Notes: generated by a model not told the origin, from the sequence alone. A DNA stretch of 51,672 nucleotides from Candidatus Woesearchaeota archaeon (GCA_964361585.1 CAYIBB010000002.1:1-51672), one strand, 5' to 3'; counted from the stretch's first letter, positions 6,236 to 51,145 are shown. A program made the numbers and translations.

Positions 6236-6319
6236 GCCTCGGTAGCTCAAAGGTAGAGCATCGGTTTTGTAAACCGGAGGTTGAGGGTTCAATATAAAAT
6301 GAAAATCCCTCCCGAGGCT
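6236..6319 (+). tRNA. tRNA-Thr (anticodon UGU) with a ~12-nt insertion in the T-loop
   Basis: Hand-folded cloverleaf: acceptor GCCTCGG/CCGAGGC, D-arm GCTC-AAAGGTA-GAGC, anticodon arm TCGGT-TTTGTAA-ACCGG, T-stem GAGGG/CCCTC. The T-stem encloses 19 nt (TTCAATATAAAATGAAAAT) instead of 7. Confidence 0.85.
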
Positions 6320-6328
6320 TAATTTTAA

Positions 6329-6742
6329 CTAGTGCCCAATACTAATCTCTTTTAATTTCTCGATGACTTCCTCTTCTATAAGATACTCTTTAATATACTC
6401 ATCCCACTCTTTGGGGTTCCATACTTGAAAATGACCGAAACAACCTATAGCCTTTACTGTAGAACCATTAGAAATACCGATTTTTGATAATTCTGAAGAT
6501 GTCAATTGAATCCTACCTTCGTTATCGACAGAAATTGGATTTTTGCGGGGTTTTTCGCCTACAACTTTTTCGTAATTTGTTGTAGGAATACATCCTAAAA
6601 ATCTGAATGGCACGGTCATTCCAGGAATTAGATCGCTAGCTACAACAATCAATTCTAAACTTCTCCACTTTGTCGGCAAAAAAATTCTACCCCTATCAAC
6701 ACATAGATTGTATTCTCCTGAATATCTCCTTTCATACGTCAT
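6329..6742 (-). CDS. MraZ-like double SpoVT/AbrB-domain protein
   Basis: Two MraZ-type DxxxR repeats: YSGEYNLCVDRGRIFLPTKWR and SVDNEGRIQLTSSELSKIGISNGSTVKAIGCFGHFQVWNPKEWDEY. Start moved to Met40 of the ORF-track entry (6742) because the longer form overlaps tRNA-Val. Confidence 0.6.
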   Translation of the reverse strand: MTYERRYSGEYNLCVDRGRIFLPTKWRSLELIVVASDLIPGMTVPFRFLGCIPTTNYEKVVGEKPRKNPISVDNEGRIQLTSSELSKIGISNGSTVKAIGCFGHFQVWNPKEWDEYIKEYLIEEEVIEKLKEISIGH

Positions 6743-6778
6743 TTTTCCAATACCTAGCCTAAAAATACATCCAGAAAG

Positions 6779-6789
6779 TATTTTAAAAA
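6779..6789 (+). promoter_or_regulatory. TATA-box candidate for tRNA-Val
   Basis: tattttaaaaa centred about 27 nt upstream of the tRNA 5' end, the usual archaeal TATA spacing. Confidence 0.45.
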
Positions 6790-6811
6790 CCTTTCTCCCT
6801 GCATTAGTTAA

Positions 6812-6945
6812 GGGCCCGTGGTCTAGTGGTTTAACCTTTTTGGAAAAAAGCTTAACCAAAAAGAATAAATAGAAAAACTAAAAACTCCACAAATGACGCT
6901 TCGTTGACGTCGAAGAGATCCTCGGTTCGAGTCCGAGCGGGCCCA
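6812..6945 (+). tRNA. tRNA-Val (anticodon GAC) with a ~60-nt D-loop intron
   Basis: Acceptor GGGCCCG/CGGGCCC plus A73, anticodon arm CTTCG-TTGACGT-CGAAG, T-arm CTCGG-TTCGAGT-CCGAG. D-stem GTCT...TGAC is separated by 69 nt, which includes an internal hairpin TTTTTGG/CCAAAAA. Confidence 0.85.
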
Positions 6946-6981
6946 TACTAACTTTTTTAAATTTCAAGATATTCAACAAAG

Positions 6982-7626
6982 ATGCAAGAACAAAAAAGAG
7001 TGAATGAGATTCTTAACATATTGAAGAAGAATTATCTAGCAGCAAAAACCACCTTGAGGAATGAAAATCCACTCGAGTTACTTGTGGCAACAATACTTTC
7101 TGCGCAGTGTACGGATGAAAGGGTGAATAAAGTTACACCTGAACTTTTTAGGAAATATAAGAGTGCGAAGGACTTTGCAGAGGCTGATATAAAAGAGCTT
7201 GAGAGCTTAATAAGGTCAACAGGATTTTACAGAAATAAGGCTAAGAACATTAAGGCTGCATGTAAAATTATTCACGGGAAGTATGGAGGAAAAGTTCCTC
7301 ATACAATGGTGGAGCTTATTCAACTTCCTGGAGTTGCACGCAAGACTGCAAATATTGTGCTTAGTGCTGGCTATGGAATTATTGATGGAATTGCAGTTGA
7401 TACGCATGTAAGACGCGTGTCCTTCCGTCTTGGGCTTACGAAGAATACAGATCCTAACAAGATTGAACAAGATTTAATGAAGCAAATTCCAAGAAAAGAA
7501 TGGGCTGATACAAGCTTCCGCATAATTCTACATGGCAGAGCAATTTGCAAGGCTCCAACTCCTTTCTGCAGTAAATGTCCTTTCAATAAAGTATGCCCTA
7601 AAGTTGGGGTTACAAAGAAATATTAA
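6982..7626 (+). CDS. nth: Endonuclease III (DNA glycosylase/AP lyase)
   Basis: HhH-GPD region (LPGVARKTANIVL) and C-terminal 4Fe-4S cluster loop CKAPTPFCSKCPFNKVC. Confidence 0.9.
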   Translation: MQEQKRVNEILNILKKNYLAAKTTLRNENPLELLVATILSAQCTDERVNKVTPELFRKYKSAKDFAEADIKELESLIRSTGFYRNKAKNIKAACKIIHGKYGGKVPHTMVELIQLPGVARKTANIVLSAGYGIIDGIAVDTHVRRVSFRLGLTKNTDPNKIEQDLMKQIPRKEWADTSFRIILHGRAICKAPTPFCSKCPFNKVCPKVGVTKKY

Positions 7627-7640
7627 AAAGAAAATTAAAT

Positions 7641-8642
7641 TTATACTTGAACTCGAACTTTAGCTTCGAAAGGCTCAAAAATTTCCTGATATTGCGGAAC
7701 TTTCTCGGCATCATCGAGAAATTTCCTTACTCCTTCTATAGTTTTAGGATGCACGAGTCTTATTTCTCTATTATCATGTTTGTATCCTCTGAAGATTGTT
7801 TTTGGAAGAAGTTCATCATCATTTGCATGCTTTTTGTTCCACGCTTCCAAAACATACAAAGGAACTGTTGCAACATCTGAATATCTTTCAACTTCTTCTA
7901 ACTGCGCTAAGTTTCTAATACTTGCGGCCAGTTTCTTTGTTTTAAAAATTTTATCACCCCTGAATAAATCATCAATAGCTTTCATTCCATGAGATCCGCT
8001 AACAATTCCAAAGAGTTCTAGTCTGCCATCCACGTATTTGAGTCCTTCATAAGTCCCAGCAATTTTTTCAAGTCTTTCTTGCGCACGAGAAAATTCTCCG
8101 CTCACAGTTGGTCCAGATACAATAAAATAATCTTCTTTTTTCTTTTCTATACCTGCAAGGTCAGAAAGTAAATCATCAATTCTGCCCACAAAGAAGCTTG
8201 CATAATCAGCTCCAGCCTTTGCCGCAAGTAATGCCTGTTCTGGGTCTTGTATATTCGTTACATTTATTGGAATTCCATTTTCCTTGAGTTTCTCAATCGC
8301 ATAAAGAGAATCTTCAATATCCGGCTCAAATGGATTCAGAATTATTGGAACCTTTATTAGAGGATTTCCGAATTGGATAAAATTTTCATAAGCTGCAAGT
8401 CCTTTCCTTACTGCATCTTCTCTATCTTTTGTTGCGATTTGTAAACTTACAAGCCGAGGAGCCGCATAAGTAACAAAATCTATGACGCTCTCAATGAAGG
8501 AAATATCCTCCCCAGAAGAAATTCTTTCATTGTAGCCCTCGAGCCATAATGTAGGGTTAGTTGTAAATCCTTTAGGCTTAATAATAAGCCCTTCAGCTTT
8601 CAGTACTTCACTCTTTTTTGCAGTATCCAGCCAAATGTCCAT
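7641..8642 (-). CDS. Transaldolase-family protein
   Basis: N-terminal LDTA...GFTTNPTL motif, candidate Schiff-base lysine context (PLIKVPI), and NVTNI...AGADYASFFVGRIDD typical of the transaldolase/FSA family. Confidence 0.7.
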   Translation of the reverse strand: MDIWLDTAKKSEVLKAEGLIIKPKGFTTNPTLWLEGYNERISSGEDISFIESVIDFVTYAAPRLVSLQIATKDREDAVRKGLAAYENFIQFGNPLIKVPIILNPFEPDIEDSLYAIEKLKENGIPINVTNIQDPEQALLAAKAGADYASFFVGRIDDLLSDLAGIEKKKEDYFIVSGPTVSGEFSRAQERLEKIAGTYEGLKYVDGRLELFGIVSGSHGMKAIDDLFRGDKIFKTKKLAASIRNLAQLEEVERYSDVATVPLYVLEAWNKKHANDDELLPKTIFRGYKHDNREIRLVHPKTIEGVRKFLDDAEKVPQYQEIFEPFEAKVRVQV

Positions 8643-8729
8643 GACATTTAAATATGAGAAAATTATATAAATATTGTTGAAAATTTTAGTTGTATCCTAA
8701 GCTTATAGTTCAATAGAAAAAAGAGGAAA

Positions 8730-9059
8730 ATGCCAGATAAAATCAAAGTACAAATTAAGGAGCATTTTGTTGCATTTAAGAAGGATATTCCAAATGGAGA
8801 AGGAAGGCCCCTCGAGGTAGAAGGAGTTTCAATCGCACTATTTAATCTAGATGGAAAATTCTTTGCTTTAAGCAATACTTGCCTGCATGAAGGTGGCCCT
8901 ATTGGAGAAGGCAGTGTGGATGATAGCACAGTAACTTGTCCTTGGCATGGATGGCAGTATGATGTTAAGAGTGGAAATTGTCTTACATTTGAGGGACTTA
9001 AGCTAAAGTCTTACAAAACCAAAGTTGTAGGCGAAAAAGTTTTCGTGAGCTTGGACTGA
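8730..9059 (+). CDS. Rieske [2Fe-2S] domain protein (NirD-like small ferredoxin)
   Basis: Rieske ligands CLHEGG ... CPWHGWQYD; 109 aa. Confidence 0.85.
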   Translation: MPDKIKVQIKEHFVAFKKDIPNGEGRPLEVEGVSIALFNLDGKFFALSNTCLHEGGPIGEGSVDDSTVTCPWHGWQYDVKSGNCLTFEGLKLKSYKTKVVGEKVFVSLD

Positions 9060-9158
9060 ATTGAAAAGAGTTTACTTAACTTAATAGCCCATAAAGACAT
9101 AGATCAGCCCCTTTCAAAGCAAAATTTATAAGCTACTTTTCGTTTTTCTTTCAACCAC

Positions 9159-11087
9159 ATGAAAAGAGGACAATTAAGCCTATTTGTAATTATAGCCCTC
9201 GTAATAATTATTGTAGCATCAGCTCTATTCCTTACTTTCTATTTCGGCCCTGTAAGCATTGAACAGATTCCCACAAAGTTCCGACCCTTTGAGGAGTCAT
9301 ATCTTTCCTGTCTCGAGAACTTGATTATGGATGGAGCTAAGACTCTTGGTCAGCAGGCAGGATATGTAAATGTTCCAGCTACCGAGCCAGGAAGTGAATT
9401 TATGCCTTTTGGAAATAATCTTAACTTTCTAGGCAGAGAGATTCCGTACTGGTATTATGTAAGTGCTAATAATCTTGAAGTTTCCAAAATTCCATCGATT
9501 GGCTTTATGAATTCTGAACTTGAAAGTTATGTTGAGGAAAATATTGGCAAATGCAACTCTGTTGTGTCAAATTTTGAGGAACAGGGCTTCGAGATAATTA
9601 CAGCAAGGAACGCAGTGGCAGATGTTAATGTCAAGGATGAGGAAATTTCTGTTTCTGTGAATTATCCAATAACTCTCACTTTAGGAGATACGAAGACGAG
9701 GATTAATTCCCATAATGTTAAACTTTTAGTTAGCTTAGGAAGGCTATATGAAATAGCTAAGAAAATCATGGAGACAGAAAATTCAGACATGTTTGTGGAA
9801 CAGCGCACTATTGACTTACTATCTCTTTATAATGAGTTACCTTCAACTAAGGTCACTTTAGAGTGTAATCCTCAAAGGTGGCAGTATAGTAAAGTTCAAG
9901 GTGCACTTAAGAATGTTATAGCAAATAATATTCAGTTTTTAAAGATAAAAGGTACAAATTATGCAAAGTCTGATAACTACTTTGAAATTCCCGTTGATAG
10001 TGTATCAGCTAGAGATGTAAATGTTAACTTTTTATTTATAGAGCAGCCATTCAAGTTAGAAATAACTCCTGAAAATCTTGAGGGTGAGAGCATCACTGAA
10101 CTAGCTCCTCAATTCCTTCGCAGCTTTTTGTGCCTTTCCTCTTACGATTTTGTGTATGATGTTTCGTATCCTGTTCTAGTTGTGCTACACGATGACAATA
10201 ATTTTGTATTTCAGTTTCCTTTTACTGCTGTAGTGGATAACAATCAGCCTCGCAAGAATCTTTTGGCTGAGGATTTTGGGCAGGTAGATGTGCCTCTTTG
10301 TGGACATAAACTTGCCTTCGGAAAAATATCAACTTACGAAGCTCAAGATGAAAATTTAGTCCCCCTTGAGGGTGTTGATGTAAGCTACAAGTGTATTAAC
10401 TCTATGTGTCATATTGGTCAGACTGAATTGCAGGGCACAGATGCAGTGCTTGAAAATACGCTTCCTCAATGCGTGAATGGCTTTATCATAGCTGAAAAGG
10501 ATGGCTACGCAAGAACAAAACAACAGATTTCTACCAATGTTGATAGTTTAGAAACACAACTTGTGCTTAATAAACTCAATAAGTTGGATGTTAATCTAAG
10601 AATTATTGATCTAAATGGAAATGAAAGAAGCCTTGGCAGTAATGAATTTGCTCTAGTATCTATAGTTGAAGAAGATCGAGAGTTTCAGCAAAGTTTGGTT
10701 TATCCTGAGGATAGTGAAATTGAACTCACAGGAGGACTTTATGAGGTTAAGATTCAGCTCTTTAAGGATCAAGTAACAACCTTTGAGCCACAGAAAATCG
10801 AAAATTGTATAAAAGTTCCAGCAAGTGGAATTTTAGGGATCTTTGGAGCAAAAGAAGAGCAGTGCAATACAGTAGAAATTCCAGCTCAGGAAGTTACTCA
10901 GATGCTTTTCGGTGGAACTTCCTTTAATTGGTTTGTTCAGAAAAGTGATATTGAGAATGCAAACAGAGTCACCCTCTACGCTATTGAGTATGATGTTCCT
11001 GGATTGGTGGATGATCTAAGTAAAATTTATCTTGAACTTGAAGTTAATTCGCAATACGATGTATTTAAGCAGCCAGAATTTAGCTAG
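9159..11087 (+). CDS. Large secreted/surface protein with a type IV pilin-like (class III) signal peptide
   Basis: N-terminus MKRGQ-LSLFVIIALVIIIVASALFL fits the archaeal prepilin-peptidase pattern [KR]-G-[Q]-[L] followed by a hydrophobic helix. The remaining 610 aa have no recognised domain. Lies 25 nt upstream of the giant ORF on the same strand. Confidence 0.7.
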   Translation: MKRGQLSLFVIIALVIIIVASALFLTFYFGPVSIEQIPTKFRPFEESYLSCLENLIMDGAKTLGQQAGYVNVPATEPGSEFMPFGNNLNFLGREIPYWYYVSANNLEVSKIPSIGFMNSELESYVEENIGKCNSVVSNFEEQGFEIITARNAVADVNVKDEEISVSVNYPITLTLGDTKTRINSHNVKLLVSLGRLYEIAKKIMETENSDMFVEQRTIDLLSLYNELPSTKVTLECNPQRWQYSKVQGALKNVIANNIQFLKIKGTNYAKSDNYFEIPVDSVSARDVNVNFLFIEQPFKLEITPENLEGESITELAPQFLRSFLCLSSYDFVYDVSYPVLVVLHDDNNFVFQFPFTAVVDNNQPRKNLLAEDFGQVDVPLCGHKLAFGKISTYEAQDENLVPLEGVDVSYKCINSMCHIGQTELQGTDAVLENTLPQCVNGFIIAEKDGYARTKQQISTNVDSLETQLVLNKLNKLDVNLRIIDLNGNERSLGSNEFALVSIVEEDREFQQSLVYPEDSEIELTGGLYEVKIQLFKDQVTTFEPQKIENCIKVPASGILGIFGAKEEQCNTVEIPAQEVTQMLFGGTSFNWFVQKSDIENANRVTLYAIEYDVPGLVDDLSKIYLELEVNSQYDVFKQPEFS

Positions 11088-11112
11088 GAAATTTTAATAT
11101 CTAAACGAAAAG

Positions 11113-14100
11113 ATGAATAAAAGAGGAATTAAAATTGTAGAGAAGTTTATTGCAATCTTCTTAATTTTACTTTTAGTAACATCTTCTATAATATATATCC
11201 CTTCATCAACTGCGCAGCAGCAAACGCAGAATGTTAATAATGTCCCTACAGAATTTCCTACAACTACAGTAGTTACCGCAACTCCTTCAGGACCTGTAAT
11301 AACTACTGACTTTATTCCGGCTCAGTTCATTAATGCCTCGCAAGACTTTCTAGTCTTTGTGGACGATTACGAGCCGAAAGTTGTTCGTAGTGACCTTTTG
11401 GAGGAACAGTCAGTTCCAGTTTATGCGAAACTCAGGCTTTTGAATTCAAATCCTCTTATCGAACCAATAATAAGAGATGTGAATGTAAGGCAAACTGAAT
11501 TCAACAATTTTGTTGCTGGAGTAGGACATTTGGATCCACCCGGAAGAAAATTTACTACTGATAATGTTGGTTATGCTATCATTTTCTTGCGAGGAGGGCT
11601 TCCAGAGAAGGAAATTCCCGACAAATTAGACATAAAGGCACAGGCTGACATTATTTATGATTATCAATTCACTCCAGGAGTAAGGCGCGAAGACTTTGTG
11701 CTTGTTCCTTTAAGTGATGATGACTTCGAGGCATTGCAGTTAGAGCATTCCTTTTGGAATAGAGCAGGCTATATTCGAGTAATGGAAGTAAGGGAGAGTT
11801 CTGCTCGTGTTCAAGTTTATGATGGCCTCCGTAATGTGATTGGCAGTTTCGACTTGACCTTACAGCGACCTCAGAGTGCTCCCTTTAAAGCCACAAGGAC
11901 TGCATTCACAACACATGCTGCAACTGGATTTGCAGTAGTACAACTTAATAATATTGAGTTCCCTCAGACAAGAGCAAAGCTGCTAGTAAATGTTAATGGT
12001 CATGAACAAGTTAGAGAAGTTGCAAAAGGCGCAGCTATTTATGAAGGCTCACAATGGTTTGTTGAGGACATTTTCATTATAGATGAGATTAGAGGAACTG
12101 GCTCAGTAGTCTTGAGGAAGAAAGGTACTCCTGAAAGTGTAACTTTGGAATTGAGTAGTCTAGAGGAGGAGAAGAAAGAGGAAGCAAAGAAACTTGCAGC
12201 TCCGATTGAAATTGCGACTAATAAGATAATAGCTTTAGCAAGAGATGAAAGTAAATACATGGGTAAGCCTTACATATGGGGTGGTGAAGCTCTAGAAGAA
12301 GGAGGCTTTGACTGCAGCGGTTTAGTTTATGCTATTTATAACGAATTAGGATTAATTAAAGATAGGCTAACTGCACATGCTTATTACAATTTGTTTAAAC
12401 CTAATGGTCCTGGACTTGACTCAAGTAAATGGAAATCAGGAGATGTTTGCTTTTTTGATTGGGGAAAAGATGGCAAAATAGATCATGCTGCAATTTACAG
12501 TGGATTTCGGAATGGGAATCATTGGGTAATTGATGCCTCTTCAACCCAAAGGCCTGTTAGTGAAAGACCCGGAGTAATAGAAGGCGCAATATCCGAAAAT
12601 AAATTCAAAGGCTGCTTTCGAGTTCCTGGAGCTGAGAAGTATCAGAGTCAAAGTTCACAACCAAACACAAATTCCCCCTCCCCCTCAACCGCATTACCAT
12701 TACCACCAATAGCAACAGCTGCAATTCTTGTTGATGCTCCAGGGAGTGAAGTGCAAGATTCACTTAAGCAAAAGCCAGAATCATGGCCTCAGGGATTTTC
12801 ACTTGAAAAGACAACATTTGATGGAATAAATTATTACAGGGCTTTCATCTCTCAAGAAGAAAGTGAAATTAAAACTTACATTTACAAATCTGAGGATTTT
12901 TCTGTTGGCAAGTCCTTTAAGGTAATTTTAAGGAAGGAAGGATTTTCTGGAAGCGTAACTCTTGTTGGCAGTAAAACTGAAGGTTATACCCAACTTGTGT
13001 TGTTTGATGTAGTAGGCAGAGAGGAAGGCAGGAAGCCAATCAGCATTTCATACGACTCCGTATTCTCTAACACTTACACAATAAATGATGCAATTAATGA
13101 GGCATTGAAGATAAGAGGGGCTGAGAGAGTGGAGATTCCGGCAACTGCGCAGGAGGCTTATAATGAAGCAGTCTCAGCATATTGGGAAGTTGTGAATACT
13201 TTTCCATTCCTAGAGATAGAGGATGAGCAGGACAAGGCCACCCATCAATTTTGGGCAGTAAAAGCACTTCGAGGAATCGTAAGCTTAAGCGATCACTTTA
13301 TACAGCAAAGCTTGAATGTACAAAGGGCTAAGGATGAAAAGATAAGGGCTCTTACTTACTTGAAGGAAAATTATGCGGAACAATTTACAAGAGAAGATGA
13401 GCAGGAACTTAATAGACTCTTTAATTATGATGTGAGTAAGGCCACAGATTCTTTGCTTGAAGATTCCAATACTATAGTGGTATCATTACAGAAAATTAAT
13501 TTCCCAAAAAATAAATTTACTGAATTCTCTCTTGATGGTACTTACTCTGGGGATATATTTTCAGTAGGTAAGCTTTTTGAAGGTTCTGAGTTAGGAGCCT
13601 TGAGTAGTGTAGAAATTTCTGACATTTCAGCTAATCAAGTTACCTTCAACATAGGAAGTGCTCCTAAAACTTTAGGAATCGGCCAGCAAGAAACTTTCGG
13701 GGGAATTACATTCAAGTTAATTGATACGCCAGAGACCGAAGAAATAACAACGACAGAAGGAGAAAGAACTACCTCAAAAGTCAGAAAAGCAAAACTTGAG
13801 ATTTCAATCTCAAATTCACGCGCAAAACTAAAGGAAAATGATTACTTTCTTGGCTGGAAAGTGGATAGCATTAATCCTGACACTGTGATTTTGAAAAAGG
13901 AACAATCCACTAAGTTCTTGCGCAAGGGAATCAACAAAGTTGCATTTCCTCCATCTCTTGATATTACTGTACTTAATTTGAATATTCCCCGTGAAGTAAG
14001 CTTAAGTGTGGTTCCATACACTATTGGAGGCCGTTCTACAGTTTCATTCGATCTACATGTTGCTGTCGAGAAAAGGCTTATTAAAATAGGACCTAAGGCT

Positions 14101-18761: not shown

Positions 18762-18880
18762 TGCGGGGAACAGGATTCGAACCTGCGCAGGCACTAAGCC
18801 ACTAGGTCCTAAGCCTAGCCCGTATAGTCTAATCCTTTTTTTTACGATTTTAGATTATTTGACCACTCCGGCATCCCCGC
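18762..18880 (-). tRNA. tRNA-Leu (anticodon UAG), class II, with a ~33-nt D-loop intron
   Basis: Reverse complement folds as acceptor GCGGGGA/TCCCCGC plus A73, anticodon arm CTAGG-CTTAGGA-CCTAG, long variable arm (GGC-TTAGT-GCC) and T-arm GCAGG-TTCGAAT-CCTGT. D-stem CCG...CGG encloses 46 nt, including the helix TAATC/GATTA. Confidence 0.85.
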
Positions 18881-19892: not shown

Positions 19893-19982
19893 TTTTCAAA
19901 TTATCCCTCGAGAGATTTCCACAAGTTCTTTTTCATAAAACCTTTCCTAAATATCTTTTTATAAAACATATTTTTCTTTGAT

Positions 19983-20007
19983 GAAACTTTCTTTCCAAGA
20001 AAGTTTC
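19983..20007 (-). terminator. Perfect 11-bp-stem hairpin immediately after the Sm gene stop
   Basis: GAAACTTTCTT-tcc-AAGAAAGTTTC; it abuts the Sm stop codon (20007-20009) and precedes the TATA-like box of rpl37e. Function (terminator or processing/stability element) is inferred. Confidence 0.3.
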
Positions 20008-20243
20008 TAATCAACAGAAGCAGGGCTAATAAATATTATTGTATCTCCTCTAACAAATGTAAGACCTAAATTCTTGCGCAACTCTCCATTGATCATCTCC
20101 TTGGTATTATCAAGAATTATGTTTATATGGATATCAAAAGCTAGGAGTTTCCCAACTAATTGCTTTTCATTCTTAAGCTGCACAATAACTTCTTTACCCT
20201 TAGTCTTATTAAGAAGATCTAAAGGACGCTCAAAACTATTCAT
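20007..20243 (-). CDS. Sm-like archaeal protein (SmAP/LSm)
   Basis: Sm1/Sm2 motifs: KEVIVQLKNEKQLVGKLLAFDIHINIILDN ... TFVRGDTIIFISP; 78 aa. Confidence 0.9.
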   Translation of the reverse strand: MNSFERPLDLLNKTKGKEVIVQLKNEKQLVGKLLAFDIHINIILDNTKEMINGELRKNLGLTFVRGDTIIFISPASVD

Positions 20244-23759: not shown

Positions 23760-24356
23760 ATGAAAGGAAAGATCAAGCAAGTAGAGATTAAACAGAAACC
23801 TGAAAAGGAAAGACAAGAGCATCATGTAAAGGAAAAGATAAAGCCTTTCAAGGCAACAATTGTAGGGGAACGCATTGTGAGTGTGGATAAGGAAGCCAAG
23901 AGACTTTATGATATGAGTAATTTTGGCGAAATTGCTGAGGATAAGGTGTACTATTCGCTTGTTGAATCTCTCTACCTTTTAGAGAAGAAGAAAATTAAAA
24001 TCTATGATTGTAGAAAGGCACTGAATTTTGATGTTTTACTCAAGAAAGCCAGCACATTAGAACCTAACTTTTATACCCGCTTTAGAGTATTTAGAGATAT
24101 GAGAAATAAAGGATACATAATTAAGACTGCACTCAAATTCGGAGCTGACTTTCGTGTCTATGACCGTGGAATAAAGCCGGGTCAGGAACATGCGCGATGG
24201 ATTCTCTATCCAGTCTATGAGGGCTCACATTTGACATGGCATGAATTTGCCGCTAAGAATAGAGTTGCACATTCAACAAGAAAGAGACTCCTTATGGGTG
24301 TTGTAGATGATGAGGGAGATGTTACTTACTGGGAAATTAGATGGATGAGGCCTTGA
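23760..24356 (+). CDS. endA: tRNA-splicing endonuclease, catalytic alpha-type subunit
   Basis: C-terminal catalytic domain KFGADFRVYDRG...EHARWILYPV...HSTRKRLLMGVV carries the Tyr/His/Lys catalytic residues. A ~30-aa Lys-rich N-terminal extension is present; 198 aa. Confidence 0.85.
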   Translation: MKGKIKQVEIKQKPEKERQEHHVKEKIKPFKATIVGERIVSVDKEAKRLYDMSNFGEIAEDKVYYSLVESLYLLEKKKIKIYDCRKALNFDVLLKKASTLEPNFYTRFRVFRDMRNKGYIIKTALKFGADFRVYDRGIKPGQEHARWILYPVYEGSHLTWHEFAAKNRVAHSTRKRLLMGVVDDEGDVTYWEIRWMRP

Positions 24357-26033: not shown

Positions 26034-26119
26034 TGCCTCGGGGGGGATTCGAACCCCCGACTTCTGCCTTACTCAAAAAATTCATGAGAGCAGCGCTCTA
26101 CCAACTGAGCTACCGAGGC
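26034..26119 (-). tRNA. tRNA with CAU anticodon (elongator Met or Ile2) carrying a 13-nt intron at or near the canonical 37/38 site
   Basis: Acceptor GCCTCGG/CCGAGGC plus A73, D-arm GCTC-AGTTGGTA-GAGC, anticodon stem CTGCT/GGCAG enclosing 20 nt (CTCATGAATTTTTTGAGTAA), T-arm GGGGG-TTCGAAT-CCCCC. The acceptor stem is not initiator-like. Confidence 0.8.
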
Positions 26120-26573: not shown

Positions 26574-26633
26574 TTTTCTTTTGACGAAACTTCCACCAAA
26601 TTATTTTGATTGAACTTTTTCTAAAAGTTCATA

Positions 26634-26739
26634 TGGACTCGCCGGGATTCGAACCCGGAATCTCTCCCCAGCCAAGGGAGCATTCTTTAACAAACTTTTC
26701 ACGCTTTTTTCAAAAAGTTTACCGTTGAACTACGAGCCC
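26634..26739 (-). tRNA. tRNA-Ala (anticodon GGC, G3:U70) with a ~32-nt D-loop intron
   Basis: Acceptor GGGCTCG/CGAGTCC (G3:U70 Ala identity pair) plus A73, anticodon arm CTCCC-TTGGCTG-GGGAG, T-arm CCGGG-TTCGAAT-CCCGG. D-stem GTTC...GAAT encloses 41 nt, including the hairpin AACTTTT/AAAAGTT. Confidence 0.85.
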
Positions 26740-28237: not shown

Positions 28238-28353
28238 TAGCCCCGCCAGGATTTGAACCTGGGTTCCAGGCTCCAAAGGCCTGTGTGCTTAGTCTGCCTT
28301 TTTTCCAATTAAATCTTAGGAAAAAGATTAATTGACCGCTACACCACGGGGCT
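28238..28353 (-). tRNA. tRNA-Gln (anticodon UUG) with a ~43-nt D-loop intron
   Basis: Acceptor AGCCCCG/CGGGGCT (A1:U72, typical archaeal Gln) plus A73, anticodon arm CAGGC-CTTTGGA-GCCTG, T-arm CCAGG-TTCAAAT-CCTGG. D-stem GTGT...GCAC encloses 52 nt, including the helix TTTTTCC/GGAAAAA. Confidence 0.85.
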
Positions 28354-40419: not shown

Positions 40420-40458
40420 TACCAAAAATTATTTATACTAACTATACCTACGTGAAAA

Positions 40459-44437: not shown

Positions 44438-44478
44438 TTCTTTCAATAATTTTTTATATGCTAAAATTTAGTTTTTAG

Positions 44479-44946: not shown

Positions 44947-45538
44947 TAATCCTAAAAACTTCTTTCAAGTCAGAGTAAATAGGTACTCCTTTAACTCTAA
45001 AAATCTTTACAGTAAGAATCCAGATTCCAACTACTATGATTGTGGAGCCTAGTATCCAAAATGTAATATGGACCTTATTAAAAAGATCGAGACCATACTG
45101 CACTAGAATTACAATTAGTATCATAATTCTTAATACATTGACTAGCAAGAACGCGAGGGAAGTGAAAAGAAAGATTTTGATTCTATCGCTAATGCTTATG
45201 CCTTTAGTAAGTAAATTCAGGATTAAGAGCAGATAGTAGGCAGAGCCGGCAATGCAGGCATTGATTAACTCTATTACATAACTGTTAATGTAAAAGACGT
45301 TTCCTTCCACAAGCATTGGGTAGAATAAACTTATAAGGAATGAGCTTAATAGCACCGTTAGAGGTGTGAAGACAGCATAAAATAATGCTAAAGAGTTTAC
45401 TGAAAATAGCAGCAGAATTGCCAGCCTTGCACCAAAATCTATTAAATAGTTCCTAGCTTTTAATGCAATTACTGGCTTATCCTTACTATGTCTGCCTCTT
45501 TTTGCTCTTTGCACTTTATTTTTCATCCTATCTTTCAT
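44936..45538 (-). CDS. Small exosortase/archaeosortase-family protein
   Basis: Polytopic 200-aa membrane protein with the three family signature positions in order: Cys (ELINACIAGSAYYL), Arg (LVNVLRIMILI) and His (NKVHITFWILGS). Confidence 0.6.
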   Translation of the reverse strand: MKDRMKNKVQRAKRGRHSKDKPVIALKARNYLIDFGARLAILLLFSVNSLALFYAVFTPLTVLLSSFLISLFYPMLVEGNVFYINSYVIELINACIAGSAYYLLLILNLLTKGISISDRIKIFLFTSLAFLLVNVLRIMILIVILVQYGLDLFNKVHITFWILGSTIIVVGIWILTVKIFRVKGVPIYSDLKEVFRIIKK

Positions 45539-45594
45539 CCTATAATAGGATAAGGTAAGAAAAACTATTTAAATAAATTTTCCCCTCTCGCAGA

Positions 45595-46209
45595 ATGAAA
45601 CCAGAAAAGAAGATTCTTTTAACCTATATAACCTTCTTTATACTATTTCTTATACTTATAATATTTCCATCTGCAGACCTATATTTAGTTTCTAAAATTC
45701 AAGAGATTAGAAATCCAACCTTGGACACTGTAATGTTGTGGATTACTAACATAGGTTCAGGACTTATTATCTTTTTTATAATTTCGACCCTATTCTTGTA
45801 CGAGGAAAGGAAGAGGCGCTGGATTCTCCCTCTTTGGCTAGGCTTTTTACTTTCTTCTTTAATTGTGTATCTTCTGAAGTCTTCAATATCAAGGCCTCGA
45901 CCATTCTTGGAATTAGGAATTCCTGCCGAGAGCGATTCACCAAACTCGAGTTTTCCAAGTGGACATACAACTATGGCCTTTGCCGCCTTACCTGTAATTG
46001 ATAAAGAGTTCCGAAAGATAAAGCTGTTTTGGATTATTTTTGCAGTTCTAGTGGGGTTTTCAAGGTTTTATCTTGCAGTTCATCATATAAGTGATGTTAT
46101 CTTTGGAGCAATGTTAGGCTATACCCTCTCGTTAATTTTTGTTAAGTTGGAAGAGAAAAAAGTGTTCTCAAATTTCTTAAGTAAATTCAAGAAACAAGTA
46201 AGGAAATGA
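45595..46209 (+). CDS. PAP2-superfamily lipid phosphatase (polyprenyl-diphosphate phosphatase-like)
   Basis: Acid-phosphatase motifs KSSISRPRP, PSGHT and SRFYLAVHHISD. A leaderless-type TATA (tatttaaata) lies about 25 nt upstream. Confidence 0.85.
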   Translation: MKPEKKILLTYITFFILFLILIIFPSADLYLVSKIQEIRNPTLDTVMLWITNIGSGLIIFFIISTLFLYEERKRRWILPLWLGFLLSSLIVYLLKSSISRPRPFLELGIPAESDSPNSSFPSGHTTMAFAALPVIDKEFRKIKLFWIIFAVLVGFSRFYLAVHHISDVIFGAMLGYTLSLIFVKLEEKKVFSNFLSKFKKQVRK

Positions 46210-46808
46210 ATCTAAATTCAAAGTTTGAAATTAAAAGGCAAATTGTGCATATTTTGCTAGGACTTGTAATTATACTCCTTGCACTTTATGATCGAACTTT
46301 TGCACTATGGTTGATCTTTAGTTTTTTAATGTTAGGAATCATTCTTGCTTTGATCTCTCTCAAATTAGATGTTCCAATAATCTCCTGGTTCCTGAAAAAT
46401 TTCGAACGTGATGAGTACAGGGAAAAATTTCCTTTTAAAGGAGCAATTTTCTTTTTTGCAGGGAGTTTGCTTACTCTGAAATTGTTTTCATTTGATATTG
46501 CCCTCGCGTCTATCTCTATTTTAACTTTTGGCGATTCCTTTTCACATCTTGTAGGAATATATGGGAAGTATAAAAGCAAACTTGATCTAAAGAGGAGAAA
46601 AAATCTAGAGGGAATGGTTGTTGGCATTGTTGTTGGCGCAATTGTAGCAAGTTTCTTCGTAAATATAATTTCTGCGTTAGCTGCTTCTGCTTTAGCAATG
46701 ATAGCTGAAAATATTTCGGTAAAGTTGCAGGGAGAAGAAGTTGATGATAATATCATAATTCCTGTCGTGGCAGGGACTGTTCTCCATATCTTGAAGAATT
46801 ATATCTGA
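46206..46808 (+). CDS. Dolichol/polyprenol kinase-like protein (COG0170, CTP-dependent)
   Basis: FGDSFSHLVGIYGKYK...KNLEGMVVG...VDDNIIIP motifs of the Sec59/dolichol-kinase family. A 4-nt overlap with the PAP2 gene. Confidence 0.7.
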   Translation: MNLNSKFEIKRQIVHILLGLVIILLALYDRTFALWLIFSFLMLGIILALISLKLDVPIISWFLKNFERDEYREKFPFKGAIFFFAGSLLTLKLFSFDIALASISILTFGDSFSHLVGIYGKYKSKLDLKRRKNLEGMVVGIVVGAIVASFFVNIISALAASALAMIAENISVKLQGEEVDDNIIIPVVAGTVLHILKNYI

Positions 46809-46869
46809 GTATTAAATTTTCCTTAAATCGAAAGATTTAAATAGTTTTAATTTTATAATGGTAACAGTT

Positions 46870-46913
46870 CTAGTGTAATGTTAGAGGTACACTAAAGTAC
46901 ATTAGTACACTAG
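46870..46913. repeat. GTACAYTA direct repeats flanked by an inverted copy in the leader of the surface-protein gene
   Basis: CTAGTGTA (46870-46877) is the reverse complement of TACACTAG (46906-46913). GTACACTA at 46887-46894, GTACATTA at 46897-46904, GTACACTA at 46905-46912. Confidence 0.5.
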
Positions 46914-46927
46914 ATAGGCTAAGGACA

Positions 46928-48889
46928 ATGAAAAAGATATTTTTTGCGACACTCGCATTTGTTTTTGTAGTTTTTACGGCATTCAATGTTTTGGCTGCAG
47001 TTCAAATTAATTCAGTAAGCACTGCAGCAGGAATTCCAGGAGATACTCTGACTTTGAATGCGAATGTTACTAATACAGACTTAACTAGTTCAGTAAATGT
47101 TGTCTTTAATAGCACAATCCTTACAGGCCCTTCTGGATTTACAATCAATGCTCCTTCAATAAATCCTGCAACTATTCCTGCTAATACCACACAATTAGTA
47201 TTCTTTACAATAAACATTCCTTCCGTACTAACGGGAGATTATTCTGGGACTTTAACCGCAATAGGACCAAATACAGTCACAAAGCAGTATATTATTACTG
47301 TAAACTCCAAGGATGCTCTTGATGTGTTGGAAACCTCACTTTCATTGAAGGAGCAACCAGGGGAGCAAGCTTCTGGGACAATCACTATAAAGAACGCAGG
47401 AAGTAGCAATCTTAACTTTGTGTCCTCAAGTTTCTCGTTTAATGGAGCAGACTTTTCTGATGGTACTGAAAATATTACCTTGGGTTTTAGCCCTAATACT
47501 TTTACAATAAAGCCAGCTGAAACTAAATCAGTAGTGGTTAGTGCATTAATTGGTGATGATATAACTATTGATGACTATTCTGGCTCAATTTCAGTAAATT
47601 CTGGAAGTGCCATAGATACATTTACTTTGGAGGTAGAAGCACGCCCTGATCTATGTGATGAGGGTCCTAAAGGTGGAAATCTTGAAATTACAAGAATAGT
47701 TGACCCTTCTTCTGGCGAGGATTTCAAGCCACTCGAAACAGTGGAAGTTACAGTAAGAGTACAGAATAATGATGATGACGAGCTTGATATTATTATTGAG
47801 GCATTCCTTGTAGACAAAGAAGATAATGACGAACTTGACAGTGTAGAGTTTGAAACTACAATAGACGAGGATGATACAGAAGATTATGATCTTGAGTTAA
47901 AAATTCCTGCCGACGTAAAGGAAAGTTCAAACAGATATGCAATTTATGTAAAGGTTTTCGAGGATGGAGAGGAAGATAACCAATGTCAGGAAAAAAGTAC
48001 AGATATAGAAATAAAGAAAGATAATCATAATGTTGCAGTTGATGAAGACGAGGTCAATATTCCTGACACTCTTGTATGTGGCATAACAAATTCAGTTGAC
48101 GTTACTGTGGTCAATACTGGTTCTGACAATGAAGATGATGTTACTGTAACCGTAAAGATTCCAGAATTAGGAATTTCTGACACTAGTAGTAAGTTCGACA
48201 TCGATGAGGAAGAGGATGAGAAGGTGCAATTATCACTTTTAGTTCCAAGGGATGTTACAGATGGAGAGTACACCCTGCGATTTGAGGTTAGAGATGAAGA
48301 TGATGATATTTTTGATGATGGAATCTTCGAGCAGAGTGTAAGTATCTCCTGTGTCTCAGGGCCGCCAACACAGCCACCTACTCCTCCAAGTACTTCACAA
48401 GTAACATTAACCTTAACAAAGAAATCCTTCGAGGTAGAGTCAGGACAGAGGCTTGATGTTACCCTCGTATTGCGAAATAATGCTAATACAGATACTGTAT
48501 TAACTGTAAATCTTGAGCCTAGTGGAAATTGGGCATCTCTCACTTCTCAGATTGTGGCACTGAAAGCAGGAGAGAGTAAAACCTTAACACTGAACTTAGC
48601 ATCAAAATCAGGAACTGATGATGGAACTTACACAGCTAGGGTTTCAGTAAGATCTAATGGAAATGAAGTAGCATCTGATAGTATTACTACCAGAGTTGCT
48701 TCTGCTGGAGGAGTTTCAGGAACAGGCGGAGTAATAGGAAGAACAATTCTTGAGGAAAACTTGCCTTTCGTAGTAATTAACATTATCCTTGTTATCATTA
48801 TAATAGTACTTATAGTGTGGATTTCTATGAGAAGGTCAAGGAAAGAAGTAAGTTCTGAAAGAACTTCCTCAAGTCCGAGAAAAAGATAA
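46928..48889 (+). CDS. S-layer-like/CARDB-repeat surface protein with a C-terminal TM plus basic anchor
   Basis: Signal peptide (MKKIFFATLAFVFVVFTAFNVLA), repeated beta-sandwich-like modules (e.g. VVNTGSDNEDDVTVTVKIPELG, GESKTLTLNLASKSGTDDGTYTARVSV), acidic D/E-rich stretches and N-x-S/T sequons. The C-terminus reads EENLPFVVINIILVIIIIVLIVWISMRRSRK followed by an 18-aa tail. Confidence 0.75.
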   Translation: MKKIFFATLAFVFVVFTAFNVLAAVQINSVSTAAGIPGDTLTLNANVTNTDLTSSVNVVFNSTILTGPSGFTINAPSINPATIPANTTQLVFFTINIPSVLTGDYSGTLTAIGPNTVTKQYIITVNSKDALDVLETSLSLKEQPGEQASGTITIKNAGSSNLNFVSSSFSFNGADFSDGTENITLGFSPNTFTIKPAETKSVVVSALIGDDITIDDYSGSISVNSGSAIDTFTLEVEARPDLCDEGPKGGNLEITRIVDPSSGEDFKPLETVEVTVRVQNNDDDELDIIIEAFLVDKEDNDELDSVEFETTIDEDDTEDYDLELKIPADVKESSNRYAIYVKVFEDGEEDNQCQEKSTDIEIKKDNHNVAVDEDEVNIPDTLVCGITNSVDVTVVNTGSDNEDDVTVTVKIPELGISDTSSKFDIDEEEDEKVQLSLLVPRDVTDGEYTLRFEVRDEDDDIFDDGIFEQSVSISCVSGPPTQPPTPPSTSQVTLTLTKKSFEVESGQRLDVTLVLRNNANTDTVLTVNLEPSGNWASLTSQIVALKAGESKTLTLNLASKSGTDDGTYTARVSVRSNGNEVASDSITTRVASAGGVSGTGGVIGRTILEENLPFVVINIILVIIIIVLIVWISMRRSRKEVSSERTSSSPRKR

Positions 48890-48933
48890 ATCTCATTCTA
48901 GATACAAAGATAAATTAAAAACAAAAACAAAAT

Positions 48934-49284
48934 TTATTTTGTTCCGCTTAATGCTACTAGGGATCCTATAAATGCCATAAGCCATGAAAGTATTAAGCCG
49001 ACTTGAACAAGCCATCCGCTCCATTCTCGCACGTCAATAAATGTTCCCTGCAAGAGTACGAATGATGCCGCAAAAAGTGCAAAAGCAGCAGCTCGCACAA
49101 ACCATGGATTAGCTTCTTTTGTAACGCCGGCGCTACTCATGACTGGAATAAGCAGAAACCATGCAACTGCCGTAATAACTGATCCTACAAATCCGCCTGT
49201 CACGGAGAGGCCAGAAAAACTTACAGCTGCAACTGCAAACAATAGCATAATCAAAGGAAAACTCCCTTTCCATTCTACAGCCAT
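48934..49284 (-). CDS. Hypothetical membrane protein
   Basis: About four TM helices. Start moved to Met23 (49284, preceded by GAGGT) because the longer ORF would contain its own BRE/TATA element. Confidence 0.5.
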   Translation of the reverse strand: MAVEWKGSFPLIMLLFAVAAVSFSGLSVTGGFVGSVITAVAWFLLIPVMSSAGVTKEANPWFVRAAAFALFAASFVLLQGTFIDVREWSGWLVQVGLILSWLMAFIGSLVALSGTK

Positions 49285-49328
49285 TTTTACCTCTTTTAAT
49301 TTTATTTTAAATGTAATTTTTTTACGCT

Positions 49329-49343
49329 TTATAAACCTTTCGA
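49329..49343 (-). promoter_or_regulatory. BRE/TATA promoter (TCGAAAGGTTTATAA), copy 1
   Basis: Minus-strand cgaaaggtTTTATAAa about 48 nt upstream of the ATG at 49284; identical 15-mer at 49785-49799. Confidence 0.5.
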
Positions 49344-49422
49344 CATACACTCTATAGAATGAAAAGAAAAAATAAAAAAGAAATAAGAATTCAAAAAGGT
49401 TTCTTTAGCTCTGCTCGAGTTT

Positions 49423-49758
49423 TTAACCTCTTGCCAAGCTAAATACGTGTTTTAATGCAACTATCACGGTTGCTGGGACAAACATTACGTTTATTGCGTT
49501 AAGAATGTTCTTTGTAACGTCAAAGATGCTTAGTGCTTGTGCTCCAAGCGAACTTGCTATTACCAATGCTAGGGAACCTAGCAAGAAAGGCATTACTTCC
49601 TTTTCTGTAATGTTAAGCAATCCTACAATTATTCCTAGTATTATAAGAATGGCTCCCACCACCTTGTTTACTGGTCCTAATGCCCCAAGTATCACTGCCA
49701 AGATCACTCCAATTAGGAATGCCCAACTTCCGATCAAGCTACCAGCTTGTTTTGCCAT
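49423..49758 (-). CDS. Hypothetical membrane protein
   Basis: 111 aa, three to four TM helices rich in Gly/Ala/Ile; no recognised family. Confidence 0.5.
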   Translation of the reverse strand: MAKQAGSLIGSWAFLIGVILAVILGALGPVNKVVGAILIILGIIVGLLNITEKEVMPFLLGSLALVIASSLGAQALSIFDVTKNILNAINVMFVPATVIVALKHVFSLARG

Positions 49759-49784
49759 TTTATTCCTAAAGAGCAGGGCCCCAC

Positions 49785-49799
49785 TTATAAACCTTTCGA
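49785..49799 (-). promoter_or_regulatory. BRE/TATA promoter (TCGAAAGGTTTATAA), copy 2
   Basis: Identical 15-mer centred about 30 nt upstream of the ATG at 49758 (leaderless-type spacing). Confidence 0.5.
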
Positions 49800-49865
49800 A
49801 CTCAATTTTACCAAGAAATAGGGTAAAGAAAAGGTTCTAGGTAATTGGTTAAGCTAGTGTTTAAG

Positions 49866-49939
49866 TGGGGCTGCCCGGATTTGAACCGGGGTCTCATGCT
49901 CCCTAAGCATGGATGATAACCAAGCTACACCACAACCCC
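49866..49939 (-). tRNA. tRNA-Pro with anticodon AGG (A34), no intron
   Basis: Acceptor GGGGTTG/CAGCCCC plus A73, anticodon arm CATGC-TTAGGGA-GCATG (positions 34-36 = AGG; A34 is the complement of t49904), T-arm CCCGG-TTCAAAT-CCGGG. The overall sequence resembles archaeal tRNA-Pro. Confidence 0.8.
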
Positions 49940-50002
49940 TTAGGAGCTAAAGAGCCAGGAGTGTTAGAGAAAGGTATTTTAAATCTCTTTTTCTTACATT
50001 AA

Positions 50003-50422
50003 ATGCTTGAGGCTATATTTAAATGGGAGGGGGATATGGAGAATGATTTATTCGAAGAAGGGGATTTCATTATGTTCAAAGTGGATTTTAAATCAAACAA
50101 GGGAGATTATGGTTTTGACATTCCTTCAGAATTTGGTGTAGGAACTGGTTATGCAAAAACTCGCTTCTTTCCAGGACTTGATGAAGTGAAAATTGGTAGG
50201 GTGTATAGAGGAGTCATAACTTTTATTAGTGAAAGGGCAACAAATAGTAATATTATCCATGTAATTGCACAAAAAGAACTTAATCTTGTAGAAAGGAAAC
50301 GACTTTTGTTTGTTTATGAATATATGCAAAGTTTGAGAAGAGATGAGGAAGGCGAAATTTGCCCTACTCATCCATTTGAAATAGGGCATTACACAGACCT
50401 AAGATATCGGCATCGTAATTAG
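50003..50422 (+). CDS. Hypothetical protein
   Basis: 139-aa ORF; no motif recognised. Confidence 0.45.
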   Translation: MLEAIFKWEGDMENDLFEEGDFIMFKVDFKSNKGDYGFDIPSEFGVGTGYAKTRFFPGLDEVKIGRVYRGVITFISERATNSNIIHVIAQKELNLVERKRLLFVYEYMQSLRRDEEGEICPTHPFEIGHYTDLRYRHRN

Positions 50423-50435
50423 AATAAAGCTCAGC

Positions 50436-51002
50436 TCATAACCTTACACTCACTTCCATACCATCATGCTCAAAGTCATGAAATTCACTTTTGTATTTTC
50501 CTGATTTTCTTACATACTCAAGGTAGTCGTGCATTGCATCTGCAATGATCTTCGCATTATCTGCCACAATAATACTACCTTTTTTGAGGTTTTTCTTCTC
50601 TAAAAGTTTGAGATAGGCAAAATATTCTTCCTTTGCAGCATCCACAAAAACCAGGTCGAATTTCCCCTCAAGCTTTGGAATTAACTTAAGGGCACTTCCC
50701 ACGATGATCTTAATTTTCTTCTCAAATCCCACTAACTTAATGTTCCTTTCTGCGACTGCCGCAATTCTTTTGGAGATTTCTAGTGTAATAATATTTCCTT
50801 CCTTACCCCTCAAATTTTGAGCCATTAATATTGCAGAGTAGCCAACTAAAGTGCCTATCTCAAGTATGAGCTTTGGGTTACACTCTCTTACAAGAGATGC
50901 AAGAAGTTTGCCTTTCTTCGGCCCAACTATTGGCAGGAACCGTGTTACAGAGGCCTTCTCAATACTTCTCAATACTTCTTCGGCTTTATTATCTTTCATC
51001 AT
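50436..51002 (-). CDS. Class I SAM-dependent O-methyltransferase (family 3, CCoAOMT-like)
   Basis: SAM motif I ILEIGTLVGYSAILMA and LVFVDAAKEEY. The first ATG is at 51002; the TTG at 51011 in the ORF track overlaps tRNA-Cys. Confidence 0.8.
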   Translation of the reverse strand: MMKDNKAEEVLRSIEKASVTRFLPIVGPKKGKLLASLVRECNPKLILEIGTLVGYSAILMAQNLRGKEGNIITLEISKRIAAVAERNIKLVGFEKKIKIIVGSALKLIPKLEGKFDLVFVDAAKEEYFAYLKLLEKKNLKKGSIIVADNAKIIADAMHDYLEYVRKSGKYKSEFHDFEHDGMEVSVRL

Positions 51003-51006
51003 AAAG

Positions 51007-51145
51007 AGCAAGGGGTGGGATTCGAACCCACGAAATACGCGGTAGCCGCTTTTCTTTGTGGAGCTTTCCTATTTTCTTGATTAAACTTCTTTTCTAAAGA
51101 AGTTTATCTGCAGCCGCGCGCCTTAGACCACTTGGCTACCCTTGC
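51007..51145 (-). tRNA. tRNA-Cys (anticodon GCA, U73) with a 64-nt intron in or next to the anticodon loop
   Basis: Acceptor GCAAGGG/CCCTTGC plus U73 (Cys identity), D-arm GCC(A)-...-GGC, anticodon stem CGCGG/CCGCG enclosing 71 nt that begin CTGCAGA, T-arm GTGGG-TTCGAAT-CCCAC. Confidence 0.8.

Follow-up and report, generated by a model that had tools for sequence, protein, structure and literature searches.

Archaeal tRNA genes with probable bulge-helix-bulge introns in a Woesearchaeota genome, and a hairpin module that their introns share with gene 3' flanks

Introns at positions 20/21, 29/30, 30/31 and 59/60 of archaeal tRNA genes, as well as multiple introns in a single gene, are established for Crenarchaeota and Nanoarchaeota. 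In the Thermoproteales, families of similar introns occur across tRNA types, and the mechanism of their spread has been called unknown (Sugahara 2008; Fujishima 2010; review PMC4090602). Heavy disruption of tRNA genes has also been reported in DPANN archaea, including a Woesearchaeota metagenome-assembled genome (MAG) (Kaneta 2018, PMC5829648). As far as the cited parts of these reports go, the cleavage of relaxed or non-canonical splicing motifs is tied to the loop insertions L1, L2 or L3 of the tRNA-splicing endonuclease EndA (PMC5829648, PMC3239211), and an L3-bearing alpha4 EndA in DPANN is reported alongside increased tRNA gene disruption (PMC5829648). For Asgard archaea, the cited part of a 2026 preprint describes repeated gains at sites capable of forming a bulge-helix-bulge (BHB), the route of arrival being left untraced. 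Here a stretch of 51,672 nucleotides (GCA_964361585.1, CAYIBB010000002.1:1-51672; hereafter the window) was analysed, which is contig 2 of a Woesearchaeota (DPANN) MAG assembled into 698,727 bases (~0.7 Mb) and 59 contigs, with 83% completeness, 0.34% contamination and a G+C content of ~36%. Seven of its eight tRNA genes carry one insertion each. These insertions are very probably archaeal BHB introns, which would be cut by EndA and joined by the ligase RtcB and would represent a sample of a genome-wide state.

The resemblance to the Thermoproteales lies in the interruption of most tRNA genes, with up to three introns per gene, in the use of positions 20/21, 29/30, 30/31 and 59/60, and in the presence of similar introns at different positions of unrelated tRNAs; 35% of introns are linked in this way here, against a value of 28% given, with a different metric, in the cited part of the Asgard preprint. 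The host differs in being a DPANN archaeon with a 0.7-Mb genome and a single alpha-type EndA, which lacks the crenarchaeal loop and does not belong to the (alpha-beta)2 class, and the shared part of its introns is a defined module of ~33 nt, which is also found outside tRNA genes, directly after genes. The DPANN cases (ARMAN, Fujishima 2011, PMC3239211; Pace-, Woese- and Nanohaloarchaea, PMC5829648) belong to the same superphylum; in the cited parts of these reports an alpha4-type EndA is linked to a marked rise in disruption, and standard tools fail to recover full tRNA sets. Broad specificity is ascribed there to L2/L3 insertions, whereas the L3 site is free of any insertion in the EndA described here and in ten of its relatives, and neither a sequence family of introns nor a counterpart outside genes is mentioned in those parts. 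Features shared with the Asgard archaea, as the preprint presents them in its cited part, are D-arm introns that standard annotation overlooks, gains that are recent and repeated, and BHB-capable sites; families spanning tRNA types make up 1.5% there, whereas here the module is recurrent and has an extragenic counterpart. Nanoarchaeum equitans belongs to a related phylum, its catalytic subunit is nearest to the EndA found here, and a tRNA-Ile(UAU) is present in both; unlike its split tRNA genes, all eight genes of the window are contiguous, and no separated halves were demonstrated, although the genome has three orphan 3' halves outside the window. The source genome is an extreme case of the already known tRNA intron load of the DPANN/Thermoproteales type, and the literature, in its cited parts, describes neither a module common to introns and gene 3' flanks nor an EndA without the known specificity loops in this setting.

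A reading of the window from its sequence alone had placed eight tRNA genes in it, seven with one insertion each and Pro without. All eight are present at these places, and every insertion site was correct, the lengths being off by no more than 2 nt according to a deletion scan that assumes no splicing motif. The genes and their introns are as follows.

6236-6319, plus strand: tRNA-Thr(UGU), putative intron 6294-6305 (12 nt, ATAAAATGAAAA) in the T-loop at 59/60
6812-6945, plus strand: tRNA-Val(GAC), putative intron 6832-6892 (61 nt) in the D-loop at 20a/21
18762-18880, minus strand: tRNA-Leu(UAG), putative intron 18824-18858 (35 nt) in the D-loop at 21/22
26034-26119, minus strand: elongator tRNA-Met(CAU), putative intron 26070-26082 (13 nt, AATTTTTTGAGTA) at the canonical 37/38 position
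26634-26739, minus strand: tRNA-Ala(GGC) with G3:U70, putative intron 26687-26720 (34 nt) in the D-loop at 20/21
28238-28353, minus strand: tRNA-Gln(UUG), putative intron 28289-28331 (43 nt) in the D-loop at 21/22
49866-49939, minus strand: tRNA-Pro(AGG), uninterrupted (ARAGORN 118.1, Rfam 55.6 bits)
51007-51145, minus strand: tRNA-Cys(GCA), putative intron 51044-51107 (64 nt) at 37/38

In the deletion scan every possible single segment was removed from each of the seven genes, and the products were scored with ARAGORN. All seven yielded a full-length tRNA with the named anticodon and a score of 120-124, the uninterrupted genes of the genome scoring 118-122. The spliced tRNAs of the window draw as normal cloverleafs and retain their identity elements, for example G3:U70 in Ala. 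The CAU tRNA, previously left as Met or Ile2, is an elongator Met, having G1:C72 and lacking the three G:C pairs in the anticodon stem; the genome also has its own tRNA-Ile(UAU).

Recovery of all eight genes was achieved with the Rfam tRNA model, weaker partial matches included, together with a custom search for T-arms and acceptor stems. Because of the insertions, standard finders are incomplete on these genes: ARAGORN in default mode found two of the eight, and the Rfam model found five at the gathering score and the other three as fragments. Miscalls were also produced by ARAGORN in its default and intron modes, Ala being taken for Thr and Gln for Arg. With only two to five of eight genes recovered by such tools, annotations of DPANN genomes of this kind will report missing tRNAs and understate completeness. 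Scans for T-arms, D-arms and the module found no ninth tRNA in the window.

The geometry used to evaluate the junctions, which reportedly follows the description of Marck and Grosjean from 2003, consists of a central helix (H) of 4 bp and a bulge of 3 nt at either cut; the exon strand of H ends 2 nt before the 5' cut, and its intron strand stops at the same distance from the 3' cut. A check of the folds for a BHB at each junction, as proposed in the sequence-only reading, found all four pairs of H in each of the seven window introns; the same holds for 23 of the 30 curated introns of the genome, and the remainder have three of four. The exon and intron strands of H differ from gene to gene, being GTGG/CCAC in Val, ATGG/CCAT in Arg(GCG), GGTC/GACT in Leu and Gln, AACG/TGTT in Ala, CTCA/TGAG in Met, CTGC/GCGG in Cys and TTCA/TGAA in the T-loop introns, that of Thr(UGU) included. 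Over the 30 introns, 113 of 120 helix cells were paired, against 56.3 +/- 5.1 when the intron strands were permuted among introns (maximum 80 in 5000 permutations), so the intron strand tracks the sequence of its host exon. A cloverleaf-compatible BHB-like junction was observed in six of the seven window genes and in 18 of the 22 single-intron genes of the genome, the numbers expected from shuffled introns being 0.9 and 2.1, respectively.

Folding of the whole precursors agrees with this geometry to a varying degree. The unconstrained minimum free energy (MFE) fold contains H in five of the seven window genes; in Thr and Met the BHB is itself the MFE fold, and in Val and Gln H lies within it. 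The exceptions are Ala and Cys, whose BHB-constrained folds lie 1.4 and 3.8 kcal/mol, respectively, above the MFE. With regard to the flanking helices (h and h'), Ala(GGC) combines an h made of the 4-bp D-stem with an h' of 9 bp. Thr, Met and Cys have an h of 5-6 bp (the 5-bp T-stem in Thr, the 5-bp anticodon stem in Met and 6 bp in Cys) and an h' of a single base pair, after which comes a loop or a neighbouring hairpin. In Leu(UAG) the exon-side helix is interrupted (h is 0) and h' is a 6-bp intron helix, and in both Val and Cys the 5' bulge has a hairpin of its own next to it. Gln(UUG) has the weakest BHB of the seven, its exon-side helix being interrupted as well and H lying between internal loops instead of clean bulges (h=0, h'=1). 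The junctions of the window other than that of Ala(GGC) are relaxed forms familiar from other archaea.

Independent information on the junctions was obtained from a comparison set of five related genomes, G001-G004 among them, which were searched with the concatenated predicted mature tRNA sequences, the matches then being read. For Cys, Leu, Val, Ala and Thr, uninterrupted genes of the same family have the junction that was predicted, and for Gln an isoacceptor has it, which makes six of the seven genes. The Cys orthologue of G004, which shares 97% identity, has no insertion and reads CTGCAG directly before ACCGCG, exactly as predicted, and in the same genome the Leu(UAG) orthologue, 95% identical, is also uninterrupted at the exact predicted junction (GGTCAA directly before ACGGGC); introns bearing the module occupy the Cys site in G001 and G003, and a Leu gene of G003 has a 50-nt intron at the same D-loop site. 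The Ala(GGC) gene of G004 is uninterrupted as well (GTTCAGTGGTAGAAT), and that of G003 has a 105-nt intron at this site. The spliced T-arm of Thr (GAGGGTTCAATTCCCTC) occurs uninterrupted in the Thr genes of G001 and G003. For Gln the contiguous D-arm GTGTAGCGGTCAAGCAC is found in the Gln(CUG) isoacceptor of G002, and the Gln(UUG) gene of G001 has a 30-nt intron at the matching site. The Val D-arm GGTCTAG(T/C)GGTTATGACG is contiguous in the uninterrupted Val gene of G002 and also in G003 and G004, and no same-site intron was seen in relatives, so the Val D-loop intron is specific to the source genome among those compared. At the 37/38 site of Met, G002 and G003 have module-bearing introns of 36-38 nt, of which the 13-nt Met intron of the window looks like a shortened derivative. 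Since the insertions are absent or different at given sites in relatives and the exons are conserved, they are dispensable, variable and lineage-specific, as would be expected of introns.

The window also encodes the enzyme that would be expected to cut these introns.

23760-24356, plus strand: EndA, tRNA-splicing endonuclease, 198 aa (PF01974 1.1e-26, PF02778 5.9e-12)

This EndA is a single alpha-type protein with both N- and C-terminal domains, and its Tyr-His-Lys triad aligns with those of M. jannaschii and N. equitans. Among relatives of solved structure, the best matches are the catalytic subunit from N. equitans (3IEY_A, 8e-37) and the homotetrameric enzyme from M. jannaschii (1A79, 3.5e-30). 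The Lys-rich insertion of six residues in the C-terminal domain at the L3 site of N. equitans is missing (GIKPGQ------EH), the loop being as long as in M. jannaschii, and there is no insertion in the N-terminal domain relative to the strict M. jannaschii enzyme; the same holds at both places for ten Woesearchaeal relatives. The closest relatives of the window EndA are MAGs labelled Woesearchaeota or Nanoarchaeota, which agrees with the earlier expectation that an intron density of this kind points to a few lineages, some DPANN among them, and identifies the host as a DPANN archaeon. No second EndA-family gene was found in the genome, a single protein matching PF01974/PF02778 at E<=1-10, a search that a divergent beta subunit could escape; as the genome is 83% complete, a second subunit could also have been missed. 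The gene for RtcB is located on another contig (C7:11387-12697, match 1.8e-174). At its N-terminus (23760-23850) the EndA has a Lys/Glu-rich extension of 30 residues (MKGKIKQVEIKQKPEKERQEHHVKEKIKPFK), which occurs in variable form in some Woesearchaeal relatives and not in M. jannaschii; this tail is a candidate for an additional RNA-binding segment.

The proposed course of splicing is as follows. Pairing of four bases of the exon, shortly before the 5' cut, with four bases of the intron, shortly before the 3' cut, would set both cut sites in 3-nt bulges flanking the 4-bp helix. The window EndA would then cut both bulges, and RtcB would presumably join the exons. In introns with the module, its hairpin may supply the flanking helix for the 5' bulge.

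Several observations weigh against this interpretation. Only Ala(GGC) has the strict hBHBh' form, the flanking helices of Gln(UUG) are weak, and the 5' cut sites of Thr and Met fall within a small hairpin loop. The junctions were selected partly by the BHB rule itself, a bias that the shuffling test and the orthologues address for most but not for every gene, and we infer excision and the exact cut positions from DNA. A further difficulty is the enzyme: a single EndA without the loop insertions that the literature ties to the cleavage of relaxed motifs is not what such junctions would lead one to expect. The sequence-only reading had concluded that the genome depends heavily on an endonuclease of relaxed specificity, and this dependence is not established: most window junctions are relaxed, the only EndA found lacks specificity-loop insertions, and the specificity of this EndA cannot be read from its sequence. 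Finally, runs of T5-T7, which are awkward for read-through transcription, occur in eight of the 30 introns (up to T7 in Asp), and four of the seven window introns (6832-6892, 26070-26082, 26687-26720 and 28289-28331) have runs of 5-6 T. Half of the curated tRNA genes (15/30) are followed, within 12 nt past the 3' end, by a run of at least four T, like ordinary archaeal terminators.

The window appears to sample a state that extends over the whole genome, with roughly nine of ten tRNA genes interrupted by one to three introns and with hot spots at 37/38, the 3' side of the D-loop and 59/60. Among the curated tRNA genes at least 26 of 30 are interrupted, by 30 introns in all. Sixteen introns are located at 37/38, eleven in the D-loop or D-arm and two at 59/60, and the sites 29/30, 30/31 and 36/37 have one apiece. 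The intron module or orphan T-arms led to no fewer than seven other genes, every one of them interrupted: a His gene, three for Ser, Leu(CAA), a Val(UAC) in which there are three introns, and a second Pro. One of these, Ser(CGA), has two introns, of 50 and 41 nt. The predominance of non-canonical positions claimed earlier therefore stands for the window (five of seven introns) and does not extend to the genome, where 37/38 accounts for about half (16 of 30); the window thus overstates the non-canonical share. One gene counted as uninterrupted, Ile(GAU) (C16:15371-15483, minus strand), has two mismatches in the acceptor stem when read contiguously, and removal of 38 nt between 2/3 and 7/8, with the repeat TCCCG at both ends, gives a perfect acceptor stem; no clear BHB is visible for this 38-nt segment.

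In relatives, interruption was judged by the length of the Rfam match, and the covariance model misses heavily interrupted genes. On this measure, same-family genomes have 9-16 uninterrupted genes among 25-28 tRNA genes detected (36-68% interrupted), and in other families of the order most of the tRNA matches listed had uninterrupted length. The source genome is the extreme of its family in tRNA intron load. As the presence of introns differs between close relatives, they have probably been gained, shortened and lost recently within the family.

Two further observations were made outside the window. A tRNA-Ile(UAU) gene (C27:8248-8413, plus strand) has two introns, at 37/38 and 59/60, and suggests that AUA is read without an agmatidine-modified CAU tRNA; such decoding is known for N. 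equitans. In addition, three orphan T-arms with a 3' acceptor strand (C18:3939-3955, C16:15648-15664 and C24:72-88, all on the minus strand) have no 5' acceptor strand within 420 nt upstream; these 3' halves could be parts of heavily interrupted class II genes, of genes with an intron in the acceptor stem, or of split or permuted genes.

About half of the introns begin, 1-4 nt past the 5' cut, with a conserved hairpin and strand-specific tail of ~33 nt in total. The consensus of this module is TAAACTTYTT-loop-AARAAGYTTMAYCAARAAA; the copy in Cys reads TAAACTTCTTTAGAAAAGAAGTTTAATCAAGAAAA, and variants of the type AACC...GCTTAACCAAAAAG and GACC...GCTCAACCAAAAG occur. Its tail, G[CT]TT[AC]A[CT]CAA[AG]A, has seven invariant positions over 25 copies. 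In the window, the introns of Val(GAC) (6836-6867, profile match E=3.6e-7) and Cys(GCA) (51070-51102) start with the module. A profile search of the source genome (E <= 0.01) gave 27 copies, of which 18 lie in tRNA introns at D-loop, 29/30, 30/31, 37/38 and 59/60 sites, both Glu introns and the Ser(GCU) intron having two each. Another three lie 3-4 nt past tRNA 3' ends, about four directly after stop codons of protein genes, and one upstream of the 16S gene (C27:84-117, minus strand, ~80 nt from the 5' end of the rRNA gene). The extragenic copies of the window, with the protein gene next to one of them, are listed below.

19970-20003, minus strand: module copy, 3 nt past the LSm stop codon (R1 E=1.0e-6)
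20007-20243, minus strand: LSm (Sm-like) gene (Pfam LSm 2.1e-20)
26599-26629, minus strand: module copy, 4 nt past the 3' end of tRNA-Ala(GGC) (AACTTTTAGAAAAAGTTCAATCAAAA; R1 model E=2.9e-5)

Within introns, the module hairpin forms a stable helix beside the 5' bulge, and in Ala(GGC) it is the h' helix itself. For 13 of 37 introns, a match of 25 nt or longer, with an identity of at least 80%, exists in an intron of a different tRNA gene, and shuffles give 0.1. Same-family genomes have 10-29 module copies each, only 3-5 of which are in detected tRNAs and most of the others elsewhere. Another family has 15 copies, and most others of the order have very few, if any. In the non-family genomes that were read, most copies occupy intergenic spacers or stand directly behind a stop codon, which is often provided by the TAA of the module's TAAAC; some are found behind tRNA 3' ends, and only about three are in introns. 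The module thus appears to be a lineage-restricted extragenic 3'-flank element that is heavily over-represented in the tRNA introns of the source genome, and this over-representation parallels the extreme intron load of that genome. It would mark the introns as one family that has spread among tRNAs and positions, and the direction may have been from extragenic sites to introns.

Two other ways to account for the module or the introns were considered and rejected. Mobilisation of the REP/RAYT or IS200/IS605 type does not apply, as PF01797 (Y1/HUH transposase) is absent from the source genome and from the related genomes G002-G005, and its presence among relatives does not follow the motif. Introns encoding C/D-box or H/ACA guide RNAs are not indicated either, no box motifs being seen by eye and no Rfam match being obtained.

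The idea that the insertions are never removed, the genes being pseudogenes, tRNAs with enlarged D- or T-loops or assembly artefacts, draws on the failure of standard finders, which miss or miscall most window genes. It is extremely improbable, since the window genes are the only ones found for their anticodons in the 0.7-Mb genome and their exons are 85-97% identical to orthologues, the insertions being absent or differing in length or sequence at the same site in independent MAGs. Covariation of the intron strand of the 4-bp helix with the host exon points the same way, and an artefact of assembly is at odds with a contamination of 0.34%. The genes with a module might instead be adjacent split genes, in which the hairpin and T-run end the transcript of the 5' half and a separately transcribed 3' half is attached in trans through the BHB, in the manner of Nanoarchaeum equitans. 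The module resembles a 3'-end signal in its place directly behind stop codons and the 3' ends of tRNA genes, T5-T7 runs occur in introns just as T-runs end 15 of 30 tRNA genes, and the best solved relative of EndA is the N. equitans catalytic subunit, all of which would suit such an arrangement. However, the spacing between the module's TATA-like part and the 3' exon is inconsistent, at 18-42 nt, and would put several of the putative starts within the exon itself, and the intronic TATA-like parts are degenerate (TTCACC, TTAACC), whereas real tRNA promoters have TTTTAAA or TTTATAA at about -30. Introns without a module and those of 12-13 nt cannot work in this way, and the intron of Val entered an intact gene recently; split genes are therefore a very unlikely explanation.

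The kinship of intronic and extragenic copies might itself be called into question if the shared hairpin were a convergent A/T-rich structure of low complexity. The composition of the genome (36% G+C, with 31% in introns) would favour such structures, and BHB introns need an h' helix in any case. Convergence would hardly produce seven invariant tail positions across 25 copies, nhmmer and covariance model E-values that reach 1e-6 to 4e-7 per genome, or 13 linked introns where shuffling gives 0.1. Moreover, the Cys intron and an intergenic copy on C11 are ~92% identical over 37 columns, the module in the Cys intron of G001 is identical over 33 nt to that in the Val intron of the source genome, and most families of the order, although similar in composition, carry no copies. 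An origin by convergence is thus unlikely, and BHB introns that share a module by descent account better for these observations.

The window's only uninterrupted tRNA, tRNA-Pro(AGG), has A at position 34. To our knowledge, archaeal tRNA sets normally avoid A34. Genes for Pro(AGG) also occur, next to Pro(UGG), in five other genomes of the order belonging to three other families. A search of the 83%-complete genome for an A-to-I deaminase that might explain this tRNA gave no PF00383 match. In G003, the Leu gene with an intron at the same D-loop site as in the window (G003:C31:860-1035, minus strand) has the anticodon loop CTAAGGA, with the anticodon AAG, and is a second A34 tRNA in the family. 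An unrelated observation is an open frame with reverse-transcriptase-like motifs (C52:459-776, plus strand; ...RDRIVHHALCNIIEPIFD...), which may belong to a diversity-generating retroelement.

As for the origin of the introns, it can be suggested tentatively that the extragenic 3'-flank element repeatedly entered tRNA genes and survived where the local sequence could complete a BHB, its hairpin serving as a portable helix for a plain alpha-type EndA. If true, this would provide a concrete source and vehicle for the gain of archaeal tRNA introns and would explain cuts at D-loop, anticodon-stem and T-loop sites. The lineage is useful for studying the origin of tRNA introns, as relatives differ intron by intron and a recognisable module has extragenic copies, and it offers a compact natural system for asking how a small EndA without the known specificity loops handles more than 35 introns at many positions.

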